Shown: in pieces, positions 1 through 8,558 of the stretch
Layout: every line of letters starts with the position of its first letter
Position numbering within the stretch: position 1 is the stretch's first letter
IMG/VR virus record: IMGVR_UViG_2690316276_000007
Strand: one strand, 5' to 3'
Origin: a virus
Lineage: Duplodnaviria; Heunggongvirae; Uroviricota; Caudoviricetes
Length of the DNA stretch: 8,558 nt
Notes under the pieces: generated by a model
Told to the model about the DNA's origin: nothing
The model's database searches: none
What the model saw: only the letters and a program-made list of their open reading frames with translations
Position numbers and translations under genes: made by a program

Positions 1-32
1 CTGGTTGTCTGGAGATTCAGGGGGCCAGTCTA
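1..32 (-). mobile_element. IS2 (IS3 family) terminal end, left inverted-repeat terminus only; the element body lies upstream of the window
   Basis: Reverse complement of 1-32 reads TAGACTGGCCCCCTGAATCTCCAGACAACCAG, matching the IS2 left end as I recall it at 31 of 32 positions. The segment is GC-rich against the AT-rich phage DNA that starts at 33. Confidence 0.75.
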
Positions 33-72
33 GAATGATAAGAACGCCGCCAATAACTCTAAACAAACACAA

Positions 73-1533
73 ATGGTGAACGGTACTTTTATCTATTGGT
101 TGAACCTCAACACGCCGGGGAACCTTCGCGGTATCACAACACGCTGTGTTCTGTTAGATGAGGTCAGTAGCTGCGAAATCACTGATGAAGGGAACCCAAT
201 CAAACTGGCAGAAGCACGTACCAGTACCTTCGGTAGTGACTCACTGGTGGTTGTATCTTCCACGCCATTGTATAAAGACGATTTAATCAATGCTGAGTAC
301 AACCTCAGTGATAAACGTAGGTACTTTGTTACTCACACATGCGGTCATGAATATACTTTTGAATGGGAACAAGTAGCGTTTGAATTTAAGCAATTAGAAA
401 ATGGTAGATCCATTCCTGATAGTACTACTACTCGTTTGTTATGCCCTCATTGCAATGAGGGAATAGATGAACATACACGGCATCAGATGGTTGATAATGG
501 TCGATGGATTGCAACTAATCCAGATGGGGAACCGGGTGTAGTAGGGTATCAAATCAGTAGAATGTATTCACCTCTGAATACTATTACTGAAATGGTTTCA
601 AAGTTTGCTGATGCTCTATATAACTTCAATCTTCAAACCTTTTACAATAACGAATTGGGCTTGCCATTCGAAGATGAGTATCAAAAAGAATTAGATATTC
701 TCCAATTAGAATCCCTACGAGAAGATGAATTTAACCTTTATAAAATTCCTGAAAGTACCTTAGCGTTGTGTATTTCAGTTGATCAGCAGGGTGATAGGCT
801 GGAAAGTCTGCTTTTAGGTTTTGATGAAAAGAACATTTATGTACTTGGGCATGAGTTTTTCTACTCCCACGATTGTACGAAGATTGAAGCCCCAGCTTGG
901 AAGGATTTAGATCAGTTTTGCCGTCAGGATTTCAGTACTGTATCAGGTCGCATAGTACCTACACTGGCTGTGTTCATTGATGCAGGGAACGGTAACGCTA
1001 CGGATACTGTGAAAAAATTCACTACACGTTGGAGTAAGTATCATCCGATCAAGGGTAGCAGCTCCACTACTGGTGAACTATTCAAGACCAGTACTCAGGC
1101 GGGGTACAAACTACAGATCCTAAACGTACATGAACAGAAGAACACGATACGCCGCCTCCTGAACCTGATGCTATCCAGTGAGGCAGATAACGCCCCGGTT
1201 AAGCTCCGCTTCAGTAGTACCTTACCATCAGATTTCTTTGAGCAACTTTCAGCAGAGGAGTTAAAACCCGCTGGTGGTAAGTTGGTATGGCGATTAAAGA
1301 AAGGTCAAAGAAGAAATGAGGCTTTAGACCTAATCTGTTATGGAATGATCGCCATAGCATATGCCCAATCAAAATTAGGTACTCAACCATTCAGGAAGTT
1401 ACGCGATTATAAAGCACAGGAAACCACTAAATACGAGATAAATAAAGTAGAAGAACCAAAACCAGAAACAGTACAAAAACCAAAACGGAATAGACGTACT
1501 GGAATGGGATCAAACTGGTTCGGTAAAAGATAA
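73..1533 (+). CDS. Terminase large subunit, lambda gpA family; 5'-truncated remnant lacking the N-terminal ATPase Walker A region (frame open 34..1533)
   Basis: By-eye alignment to lambda gpA: VLLDEV ~ VAGYDE (Walker B region), ITDEGNP ~ IEQEGSP, CPHC cysteine/histidine motif, YSPLNT ~ YSPFTT, C-terminal [15 protein letters not shown] ~ KKRRNEALDCFVY. First Met aligns near lambda residue 150. Stop TAA at 1531-1533. Confidence 0.85.
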
Positions 1534-1544
1534 GGATATCAAAA

Positions 1545-2075
1545 ATGACACTTCTACCAGAAAAGATCTACATGGTATCGAATCCCATGGATCTAACGGT
1601 ATTAGTACCCGCTGCTACTATTCTTGTTATTAGTTTTACATCATCTGGAAAAAGTACCTCATTAGATAATTTAAATGGTAGTACTTCAAAAGAATTTACG
1701 GTTGTATTAGATATGAGTACAGCACAGGAATTACTATTCTGTACTCAAATATCTAATGGTCAAACCAGTACTTTTACTTCTGAAGTCATTAATCCATTAC
1801 TTTATACTTCTGAGTACTCCCAATTAAAACAGATGATCAGTGAAATTGATCAGGTTATAGCTAATAAAATTGCAGGCGGTGCTAATTACTCAATAACAAT
1901 TAATAATAAGACTCTTGTAAGTGAATCATTATCATCGCTTGAATCAATGCGGGAACGCTATGTAAAACGTGCTAATGCTCTATTTGTGAAAATGAATGGC
2001 GGTACTTTCTCTAATGGCGGTAAACCAATCAAGAGTATTACGGTTTTCAGGCCTAAGCCAGGGAGTACACGCTAA
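1545..2075 (+). CDS. Hypothetical protein; C-terminal half weakly gpW-like (head-tail joining), with a roughly 90-aa N-terminal extension
   Basis: ORF in the lambda W position between terminase and portal. AAGGA at 1532-1536 lies 8 nt before the ATG. C-terminal helix-strand-helix pattern resembles lambda gpW. Stop TAA overlaps the portal ATG (TAATG). Confidence 0.5.
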
Positions 2076-3583
2076 TGTTCTGGAATAAGAAAAATAAAAA
2101 TTCAGAAACTAAACCCAAGAAGATTAAACAGGAACGTTCCTTAAAACAAAGTACCTTAAAACGAGATCTACAGGCAGTACGCAACACATCAGTAATGAAC
2201 TTCGGATTCAATTCAAACTCAGGCAGCAATATCAACTTCCTTCTGATGAAAGCACTACCTACCTTCAGGGCTTTCTCACGTGATGCAGTACTTAAGAATC
2301 CTATTGGTCGTAAGTACATGAACCTATCGGTAGATGGCGTTGTAGGCTCTGATGGCCTGTACGTTAAACCTTCAGTAGAGATTGACGGTACTGAAGAAGA
2401 AATCAACGGAATCAATCTAACCTTGGAAAAGCTCTTTGACCGTTGGGCATATGATGCTGATCGTTTTAGTGTTGATGGCTCATTAAGTTTTGACCTGTTT
2501 CAGCAGAACGCAGAGAAGGTAAGGGTCCAGGATGGTGAATGCTTTATTCGTATACACAATATTAATAATACCATCAAGTTAGAAATTCTCGATACGGTTC
2601 GTTTGCTTCAGTTAAATAATCAACGTTTGAGTAATGGTAATTATATTAGTAATGGTATTGAATTTGATAAATGGCATAAGCCAGTTAATTACTATTTCTG
2701 TAAATTCGATCCTGTTACCTATACTTATATCACTGGCGATTATGAAGTAATTCCCGCTGCGGAAATCTGTCACTACTTTATTGCTGATCAACAAGGCCAG
2801 GAACGCGGATTGCCGGACATGGTTGCAACTTCCAAATTAATGGAAGATCTCAAGAACTTCACTGAGGCTGCGTTAACTGCGAAACGTGTATCTGCATCGT
2901 CAATGGCTTTTATTACCAATAATAACGACACTACCAGTACTGATCTGTTAGGGGCTGATGAACGAGAAGAAGTTACACCAGTATATACAGAGTATTTTGA
3001 AGCTGGCTTTATTGGTGAGTTAGCCGAAGGGCAGGATATTAAAACTGTTACACCTACTAATGGTGTTGATGGGATTGATCAATTTACCAATGAATTGATG
3101 AATCAGATCTCGATGGGTCTGAACATAACAAAGCAAGCCTTATTATCTGATACATCCAATGCTTCATTTAGTGCAAGCCGACTTACTGAGAAATTACAAC
3201 AAACTACATTCCGTACCCGTACTAATGTACTAATCAGTAAAGTACTTAAACCAATTTATATCGCCTGGTTAAAGAACGAAATGCTAAATAACAATAAGTT
3301 AAATCTAAGTTTCTCGAGCTTTGATGATCTTATTTGTGCTCGGTATATTTCTCAAAAGCCAATTAGTTTAGATCCTGTAAAGGATATACAGGCTGAACTA
3401 CTCCAGTTAGAAGCAGGTATTAAATCTAAAACACAGGTTATTGCTGAGTTAGGCGGTGATCCAGTGAAGGTATTAGCAGAGGTACAGGCAGAAAAGGATA
3501 AAGAAAATAAAAACAAGGAAGTAATCCAGGATGGAAATGAAAAACCAGAAGAGGGAACTAACGAAACCCCTACAGGCGATTAA
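2075..3583 (+). CDS. Portal protein, lambda gpB family
   Basis: By-eye alignment to lambda gp[12 protein letters not shown]...VDGVVGS ~ ARADDLVRNNG...[15 protein letters not shown]...IAWLKNEM ~ SYSTARASANE...LCWLEEAI; LEAGIKS ~ IEAGLST. GGGAG 9 nt before the ATG; synteny after terminase. Confidence 0.85.
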
Positions 3584-7332: not shown

Positions 7333-7352
7333 ATTTGGCCACCTGAACAGAG
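7317..7352 (+). repeat. IS911 left terminal inverted repeat (IRL, about 36 bp)
   Basis: TGAAGTGG...GGCCACC...AGAG aligns imperfectly with the reverse complement of the right end visible at 8530-8558 (shared GGCCACC core and AGAG). Confidence 0.8.
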
Positions 7353-7388
7353 GTGATATGCTCACCTCAGAACAACACAGGTGCTCCA

Positions 7389-7691
7389 ATGAAAAAAAGA
7401 AATTTTAGCGCAGAGTTTAAACGCGAATCCGCTCAACTGGTTGTTGACCAGAAATACACGGTGGCAGATGCCGCCAAAGCTATGGATGTTGGCCTTTCCA
7501 CAATGACAAGATGGGTCAAACAACTGCGTGATGAGCGTCAGGGCAAAACACCAAAAGCCTCTCCGATAACACCAGAACAAATCGAAATACGTAAGCTGAG
7601 GAAAAAGCTACAACGCATTGAAATGGAGAATGAAATATTAAAAAAGGCTACCGCGCTCTTGATGTCAGACTCCCTGAACAGTTCTCGATAA
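7389..7691 (+). CDS. orfA: IS911 OrfA (IS3-family transposase N-terminal helix-turn-helix / leucine-zipper protein), 100 aa
   Basis: Translation [53 protein letters not shown]... matches IS911 OrfA as recalled. The ORF-track start at 7353 is an in-frame extension into the IRL; ATG 7389 is the likely start. Confidence 0.9.
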
Positions 7692-8557
7692 TCGGGAAAC
7701 TCAGAGCGCATTATCCTGTGGTCACACTCTGCCATGTGTTCGGGGTTCATCGCAGCAGCTACAGATACTGGAAAAACCGTCCTGAAAAACCAGACGGCAG
7801 ACGGGCTGTATTACGCAGTCAGGTACTTGAGCTACATGGCATCAGCCACGGTTCGGCCGGAGCAAGAAGCATCGCCACAATGGCAACCCGGAGAGGCTAC
7901 CAGATGGGACGCTGGCTTGCTGGCAGGCTCATGAAAGAGCTGGGGCTGGTCAGCTGTCAGCAGCCGACTCACCGGTATAAACGTGGTGGTCATGAACATG
8001 TTGCTATCCCTAACTACCTTGAAAGGCAGTTCGCCGTGACCGAGCCAAATCAGGTGTGGTGCGGTGATGTGACCTATATCTGGACGGGTAAGCGCTGGGC
8101 GTACCTCGCCGTTGTTCTCGACCTGTTCGCAAGAAAACCAGTGGGCTGGGCCATGTCGTTCTCGCCGGACAGCAGGCTCACCATGAAAGCGCTGGAAATG
8201 GCATGGGAAACCCGTGGTAAGCCCGGCGGGGTGATGTTCCACAGCGATCAGGGCAGTCATTATACGAGCAGGCAGTTCCGGCAGTTATTGTGGCGATACC
8301 AGATCAGACAGAGTATGAGCCGGCGCGGAAACTGCTGGGATAACAGCCCAATGGAACGCTTCTTCAGGAGTCTGAAGAACGAATGGATGCCGGTGGTGGG
8401 TTACGTAAGCTTCAGCGAGGCAGCTCACGCCATAACGGACTATATCGTTGGATATTACAGCGCACTAAGACCGCACGAATATAACGGTGGGTTACCCCCA
8501 AACGAATCGGAAAATCGATACTGGAAAAACTCTAACTCGGTGGCCAGTTTTTGTTGA
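7637..8557 (+). CDS. orfB: IS911 OrfB (DDE integrase-type catalytic domain); made mainly as the OrfAB fusion (7389..8557) by -1 frameshifting; independent start at AUU 7637
   Basis: The -1 frame is open from att at 7637 and reads [45 protein letters not shown]...; the ORF-track protein carries the IS3-family catalytic core. Stop TGA at 8555-8557 lies inside the right inverted repeat. Confidence 0.85.
7640..7646 (+). promoter_or_regulatory. Programmed -1 ribosomal frameshift slippery heptamer A AAA AAG (produces the OrfAB transposase)
   Basis: In the orfA frame the codons are tta aaa aag gct; the heptamer lies near the orfA 3' end. orfB is in the -1 frame relative to orfA (orfA starts at position mod 3 = 0, orfB at mod 3 = 2). 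Confidence 0.85.
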
Positions 8558-8558
8558 C
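8530..8558 (+). repeat. IS911 right terminal inverted repeat (IRR), inner 29 bp; terminal bases are outside the window
   Basis: Reverse complement of 8530-8558 aligns with positions 8-36 of the IRL (GGCCACC core and AGAG). Confidence 0.7.

Follow-up and report, generated by a model that had tools for sequence, protein, structure and literature searches.

When a short draft contig consists of tailed-phage genes that end on either side in an insertion sequence (IS), is it a prophage broken by the IS elements, a functional prophage whose ends were misjoined during assembly, a phage-derived element retained by its host, or a mobile unit carried between two IS copies? This question is raised by IMG/VR virus record IMGVR_UViG_2690316276_000007, an 8,558-nucleotide stretch (here, the window) that is one entire short-read draft contig of 8558 bp (CXBB01000165.1, assembly GCA_001254295.1) from a Shigella sonnei isolate. 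The window is made up of three parts, an IS2 end (positions 1 to 32), phage DNA (33 to 7316), and IS911 (7317 to 8558). It very likely holds the packaging and head module, together with the start of the tail, of a siphovirus-type S. sonnei prophage of low guanine-plus-cytosine (GC) content that has been inactivated by IS2 and IS911.

Positions 1 to 7316 differ from the chromosome of S. sonnei 53G (HE616528.1), the 53G reference in published work, by a single mismatch at position 3965, and proteins identical to products of the window carry the NCBI organism name Shigella sonnei. A preliminary description made from the letters alone had placed a low-GC phage segment at 33 to 7316, in an Escherichia coli/Shigella genome and next to two IS3-family ends, IS2 and IS911. 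The junction coordinates proved exact, the identities of both ends agree with RefSeq matches (99.9% for the 53G copy of IS2 and 99.8% for IS911), and the origin is borne out by the phage genes recognized with Pfam and PHROG profiles and by the organism name of the identical proteins.

IS2 and IS911 insertions in the prophage

The 32 bp at the left end of the window match exactly the final 32 bp of an IS2 element that is present in full in S. sonnei 53G (1331 bp, positions 6628 to 7958 of the 53G locus). In 53G this copy has the features of IS2, namely, 99.9% identity to the RefSeq "IS3-like element IS2," two transposase open reading frames (ORFs) on the minus strand with HTH_Tnp_1 and rve domains, and a 5-bp target-site duplication. 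Removal of IS2 and one copy of the duplicated GAATG in silico joins an upstream GpA_ATPase fragment of 104 amino acids (aa) to the ORF at 73 to 1533. The product is a continuous 589-aa ORF, and its identity to the 632-aa large terminase subunit (TerL) of a relative is 92.5%. In the window itself, the GpA_ATPase match begins only at position 109 of the 247-position profile and is followed by the GpA_nuclease match. The duplication and the restored ORF together indicate that IS2 entered an intact large-terminase gene (terL) by simple transposition. The event is common to S. sonnei strains; besides 53G, whose genome is complete, further chromosome-scale assemblies that are complete or nearly so carry it.

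On the right, the window and 53G part exactly at 7316/7317, inside a tail-fibre-domain gene of 883 codons that is intact in 53G. The sequence over 7315 to 8558 is 99.8% identical to RefSeq copies of "IS3-like element IS911." Its left inverted repeat begins with 5'-TG and opens TGAAGTGGCACACTG at 7317. The orfA gene lies at 7389 to 7691 (HTH_Tnp_1 match in the frame 7353 to 7691), orfB (rve/rve_3, frame 7718 to 8557) reaches the contig end, and a slippery site, A AAA AAG, is present at 7641 to 7647 for the −1 frameshift between orfA and orfB. The truncated fibre frame reads on into IS911 and stops at 7332. Its 402-aa product occurs on this contig only in the collection searched, and at least 230 contigs are recorded with the intact 883-aa gene in one of two sequence variants.

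Short-read assembly breaks at multicopy repeats that it cannot cross, which is why the contig ends inside an IS element on each side. A complete IS911 is approximately 1250 bp long. The contig ends are uneven, reaching 32 bp into IS2 on the left and running approximately 1242 bp through IS911, nearly the whole element, on the right; the assembler appears to have treated the two repeats unequally. The preliminary description had the phage module bracketed by the two elements. That part was wrong, as both IS2 and IS911 are insertions inside the prophage, and phage DNA continues past both insertion points in 53G. Its view of a prophage eroded by IS activity is upheld by the splitting of terL by IS2 and of the fibre gene by IS911, and by further IS hits and the loss of a left arm in other strains. 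The terminase gene is split in 53G, and both ends of the phage block are genuine IS elements.

We propose that AT-rich foreign phage DNA integrated in S. sonnei and that, during the Shigella IS expansion, IS2 hit terL, an essential packaging gene, with formation of the 5-bp duplication. In this isolate, IS911 additionally hit the 883-codon fibre-domain gene. Loss of TerL function should abolish DNA packaging and thereby leave a defective, decaying prophage, and the step in GC content would reflect AT-rich phage DNA lying beside IS elements of host-like composition. Given its chromosomal location, the split essential terL, and the fibre gene split in this isolate, the prophage is predicted to be defective, and it would be expected to have lost both inducibility and virion production.

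Alternative explanations

Several observations weigh against this account. All seven phage ORFs of the window are free of frameshifts, and those not split by IS elements are still intact; the stretches examined in S. sonnei stop short of the prophage ends and of the integrase gene; and the IS911 insertion is documented from one side, its right end and the 3- to 4-bp target duplication typical of IS911 lying beyond the window. No assembly with the right-hand IS911 junction turned up in the collection searched. The intact ORFs suggest that the inactivation and decay are recent, and they also leave room for retention of the element through a benefit to the host. The prophage could then be a domesticated phage-derived element that produces particles or fibres, rather than decaying junk. 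Consistent with domestication, hundreds of S. sonnei assemblies encode one and the same portal protein (in the collection searched, 53G and 359 index blocks contain the exact 502-aa sequence). In addition, genomes of the phage family to which the prophage belongs show no recognizable repressor or replication genes in Pfam and PHROG comparisons, except for a DEAH-box protein of 650 to 975 aa in 5 of 11 genomes. However, S. sonnei is a young clone in which such identity is expected without selection, and terL is split. The independent IS hits and deletions differ among strains, and relatives of the prophage resemble complete integrating phages, encoding lysozyme and a serine recombinase as well as terminase and a full set of virion proteins. 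We consider domestication improbable.

Still less probable is an intact, inducible prophage whose IS ends arose when repeat contigs were wrongly joined during assembly. In favor of such joins, the draft contig was assembled from short reads and ends in repeats, and no other contig of the collection has the IS911 junction. Yet IS2 with its target duplication is not confined to the draft, being shared with 53G and the other chromosome-scale assemblies, and both junctions fall exactly at IS termini. Phage and IS911 share only 2 bp at their joint, an overlap that cannot mislead a k-mer graph and that makes graph-based misassembly implausible. A composite mobile unit with the phage genes as its cargo, as an IS at each end of the 7.3-kb block might suggest, has almost no probability, since the two IS elements differ, IS2 has a 5-bp duplication of its own within terL, and in 53G as well as in relatives the phage DNA runs on colinearly past either insertion, which rules out a composite transposon.

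A prophage inactivated by IS2 and IS911 is a routine case of these elements eroding acquired DNA in S. sonnei, and of draft contigs that end in IS repeats. It also carries a caution, as blocks that look IS-bracketed in short-read assemblies are usually the result of insertions inside a larger element.

Gene content and composition of the phage block

The phage genes were assigned by Pfam and PHROG profile matches, and all of them lie on the plus strand (Table 1). The 176-aa gene stands between terL and the portal gene, a lambda-like placement, and its product has no Pfam match. In the fusion protein, Pfam places Peptidase_S78 at residues 61 to 153 and Phage_capsid at residues 350 to 608, and PHROG describes it as "major head and protease protein." The 107-aa protein matches Phage_attach at an E value of 3e-4, below the curated cutoff, and PHROG 82 ("head closure Hc1") at 4e-3. 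No Pfam or PHROG match was found for the 130-aa protein; every related locus has a gene call of this length, and the gene is conserved in 9 of the 11 genomes of the family. Residues 2 to 150 of the fibre protein match PHROG 158, and fibre-repeat PHROGs match as well. The intact 883-aa protein of 53G ends in a C-terminal Peptidase_S74 chaperone domain, which is lost from the copy in the window. The fibre alleles of S. sonnei are 883 or 808 aa long, a difference of 75 aa that equals three repeat units, and the copy number of the 75-bp repeat appears to vary among strains (53G locus 14050 to 16701 compared with two other genomes).

Table 1. Features of the 8,558-nucleotide window, with the basis of each assignment
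Feature	Position	Strand	Basis
IS2, terminal 32 bp, transposase-start-proximal end	1..32	- (transposase genes)	Identical to 53G locus 7927-7958
GAATG, right-hand copy of the IS2 5-bp target-site duplication	33..37		GAATG at both IS2 ends in 53G
terL, 3' part, gpA type, first ~91 codons cut off by IS2	33..1533 (listed ORF 73-1533)	+	Pfam GpA_ATPase, GpA_nuclease; PHROG 15
Head-tail joining protein, gpW position, 176 aa	1545..2075	+	PHROG 5774, E value 9e-11
Portal, lambda gpB family, 502 aa	2075..3583	+	Pfam Phage_portal_2, E value 4e-59
S78 prohead serine protease and HK97-type major capsid fusion, 614 aa	3531..5375	+	Pfam; PHROG 617/4523
Candidate head-tail adaptor/head closure protein (FII/Hc1-like), 107 aa	5389..5712	+	Weak Pfam and PHROG matches
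Neck or tail-completion candidate, 130 aa	5714..6106	+	Conservation
Tail-fibre-domain gene, first 397 of 883 codons, cut by IS911	6124..7316	+	PHROG 158, fibre-repeat PHROGs
Tandem array, 75-bp units x 4.2, encoding 25-aa fibre repeats	6905..7219	+	Tandem Repeats Finder (TRF) score 371, 79% matches
IS911, about element positions 1-1242	7317..8558	+	99.8% RefSeq identity; Pfam HTH_Tnp_1, rve/rve_3

The preliminary description also reported a sharp GC break at the IS boundaries, which stands in part. GC content is 0.394 in the phage block and 0.516 in IS911, and in 300-bp segments the phage block ranges from 0.31 to 0.51. The first 350 bp of IS911 have a GC content of only 0.43 to 0.46, so the right-hand step is real but not razor sharp, and the left-hand step (0.56) rests on just 32 bp of IS2. 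Both junctions are marked more sharply by oligonucleotide content than by GC. Scans of the window for Rfam families and for tRNAs were both negative.

The prophage in other S. sonnei genomes

In S. sonnei 53G, the element is located in the 4.99-Mb chromosome, at around 1.44 to 1.48 Mb. Upstream of terL, the small-terminase position (terS) has a weak Phage_Nu1 match. The downstream genes in 53G and relatives encode a Phage_tail_3 tube protein, two chaperone-sized products, distal tail proteins, an 1100-aa tip protein, lysozyme, and a GIY-YIG protein. A 737-aa tape-measure gene downstream in 53G was assigned by size and position only, and no sheath gene was found in that region. This gene content places the prophage, as far as predicted proteins can tell, among the siphovirus-type tailed phages with an HK97-fold capsid (Caudoviricetes).

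The locus differs among S. sonnei genomes. An IS21 copy lies upstream in 53G, and another genome has extra IS3-family and IS66 insertions in neck and tail genes. In a further genome, the whole left arm is lost and host genes stand in its place, adjoining IS1 and IS2.

A phage family without a sequenced isolate

A blastn search with the phage block found no DNA match in 50,697 phage records, even in distant mode. The block likewise has no plasmid match, and among 5,426 complete E. coli genomes it has only three matches, all of them weak. At the protein level, the closest match to a sequenced phage is that of the capsid, at 31% amino acid identity. IMG/VR, Scandinavium, and Buttiauxella yielded approximately 55 related loci, on contigs of 30 to 38 kb, and members of the family are present in Shigella, E. 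coli, Scandinavium, Buttiauxella, Kosakonia, and Enterobacter as well as on many IMG/VR contigs. The prophage belongs to a family of approximately 30- to 36-kb elements of Enterobacteriaceae and metagenomes that has no sequenced phage isolate. The family is widespread and most of its nonstructural genes are unannotatable, which adds value to an otherwise routine find.

The best E. coli relative is found in strain ESBLEC_MG48 (here, MG48), with terL DNA that is 75% identical. The MG48 element is 35.6 kb long, is inserted in ybhA, and encodes a 604-aa large serine recombinase and an OLD-like nuclease; its early genes are mostly unannotatable. In this element, the only complete relative examined, there are no recognizable CI, Cro, N, or Q genes. 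It spans two loci (8400 to 41552 and 37192 to 41001, in locus coordinates) and carries its own "pyridoxal phosphatase" gene beside the split ybhA, a possible replacement for the disrupted gene.

Downstream of the lysozyme gene, family genomes share a conserved right-end block (e.g., 16828 to 18445 of one locus). It includes a 144-aa SegE-like GIY-YIG protein (10 of 11 genomes), a very basic 192-aa protein (11 of 11), and proteins of 103 and 96 aa; no member of the block has an assignable function.

A GTAC excess and a palindrome purge

The oligonucleotide content that marks the two junctions is dominated by an excess of GTAC and a lack of GCGC. The window contains 95 GTAC sites, 93 of them in the phage block, compared with 31.9 ± 5.5 in dinucleotide-preserving shuffles, and this is 3.6 times the mononucleotide expectation. 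The hexamer AGTACT is found 28 times in the window (2.7 ± 1.6 expected). GCGC is absent from the phage block, all 7 sites of the window lying in IS911, and CTAG does not occur within the block either, its sole copy in the window straddling the joint between IS2 and phage. Synonymous-codon shuffles predict 54 ± 4.5 GTAC, 21 CTAG, and 10 GCGC.

The same signature is carried by the relatives. In related loci with portal identity down to 58%, GTAC is enriched approximately 2- to 3.3-fold (lowest, 1.8-fold), and the observed/expected ratio of GCGC is 0.00 in nearly all. When 550 kb from 26 relatives were pooled, GCGC was found 0 times compared with approximately 1427 expected, counting both strands. 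Of the 64 six-base palindromes, 26 reach at most 0.22 times expectation in this pool, with GAGCTC, CCCGGG, CCGCGG, GCCGGC, and GGGCCC at zero, and AGTACT (7.65-fold) is the only one strongly enriched. GRGCYC, CTGCAG, GTCGAC, and GGATCC are also absent or nearly so in the family. The depletion of CTAG and TGCA differs among lineages and mosaic segments. The signature is absent from host flanks, from a co-resident lambdoid prophage, and from the sequenced phages with the most similar capsids.

The excess of GTAC is a property of the DNA itself and is independent of reading frame. Codon choice depends on context in all three phases of GTAC: the Val codon is GTA in 73% of cases before C and in 46% otherwise, the Ser codon is AGT in 68% before Thr and 28% otherwise, and the Tyr codon is TAC in 54% after G and 28% otherwise. 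The density of GTAC outside called long ORFs (≥120 aa) equals that in coding sequence, and the dipeptides ST, VL, and EY are skewed relative to TS, LV, and YE. Among relatives at approximately 77% identity, GTAC sites are conserved at 0.61 to 0.68, compared with 0.36 to 0.42 for comparable 4-mers. GTAC is enriched 2.93-fold in core genes and is near 1-fold in many AT-rich cargo genes of the same genomes.

Several simple causes were examined and rejected. Dinucleotide content and codon usage are ruled out by the two kinds of shuffles described above. Nor is the excess shared by AT-rich DNA of these hosts in general, as cargo genes of 30 to 35% GC in the same genomes are unenriched. Biased repair from a single neighbor, as in very-short-patch (VSP) repair, is not supported, no single-mutation neighbor of GTAC being specifically depleted; GGAC/GTCC is low only through low GAC/GTC. 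Double deamination of purged GCGC sites is not by itself a sufficient source, the GTAC excess (approximately 5,600) being four times the GCGC deficit (approximately 1,400), and the change would be nonsynonymous. Helical phasing or arrays are not seen, the spacing of GTAC being geometric with only the 3-bp coding period. Operators of SlmA (consensus GTGAGTACTCAC) or of TrpR, compared by their consensus sequences, do not fit either, as position −2 has G less often than any other base and CTAG does not occur.

We tentatively suggest, with more doubt than confidence, that GTAC (preferentially as AGTACT) could be a positively maintained DNA signal, the target of a protective base modification, a DNA-binding protein that coats or compacts the genome, or a biased repair system or nuclease. 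The core GIY-YIG protein and the very basic 192-aa protein may be its partners. Neither a phage-encoded methyltransferase nor another obvious cognate enzyme for GTAC was detected in the complete MG48 element or among conserved family genes, and literature searches on GTAC or AGTACT enrichment in phages returned nothing relevant. If the excess does mark a modification or binding system, it would represent a new anti-defense or genome-management strategy. The purge of palindromes (GCGC and about 25 other Type II sites) is a known anti-restriction strategy, here as strict as in virulent phages, yet found in a family that integrates.

Comparison with known systems

The preliminary description called the prophage lambda-like, which is apt for its packaging and portal genes (terS, terL, the gpW-position gene, and portal) only. 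A gpA-type terminase with ATPase and nuclease domains, a gene at the gpW position, and a lambda-family portal are shared with lambda, in lambda gene order, and the Nu1 and FII matches are shared but weak. The head shell differs, as lambda uses gpC, Nu3, gpD, and gpE, whereas here an HK97-type major capsid protein is fused to an S78 protease, and the missing match to sequenced phage DNA does not agree with a lambdoid mosaic. Lambda also integrates by a tyrosine integrase, whereas its counterpart in MG48 is the large serine recombinase acting at ybhA, and no N-, Q-, or CI-type genes were recognized there.

Phages with a protease-capsid fusion (PHROG 617/4523), such as Vibrio phage VP882 and Xanthomonas phages FoX and M29, have the same order of terL, small gene, portal, and fusion gene, but share only 25 to 31% amino acid identity with the window. 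VP882 is a telomere phage with a P2-like tail and 57% GC, and it is without the oligonucleotide signature. A head module of siphovirus style (terL, small gene, portal, and protease-capsid fusion) also opens the 141-kb record of Escherichia phage DCP80 (PQ671644.1, positions 1 to 27726), which is classed as T4-like Straboviridae; GATC occurs 0 times in that opening module compared with 98.5 expected. Chimeric assembly could account for the DCP80 record, or it could be an unusual mosaic.

IS1, IS2, IS4, IS600, and IS911 are the five elements expanded in all Shigella species (Hawkey et al. 2020, PMC7373316). The window shares with that expansion the insertion of IS2 and IS911 into coding genes, the variation among strains, and the resulting pseudogenes, here terL and the fibre gene. 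That study makes no mention of prophages, and the phage affected here has no characterized relative.

Near-complete elimination of restriction sites has been reported mainly in nontemperate phages (Rusinov et al. 2018, PMC6286503). The family shares with those phages the complete loss of orthodox Type II palindromes (GCGC, GRGCYC, CCCGGG, CCGCGG, and CTGCAG). It departs from their pattern in two respects, as it integrates and as it combines this loss with the over-representation of AGTACT, for which site avoidance offers no explanation.

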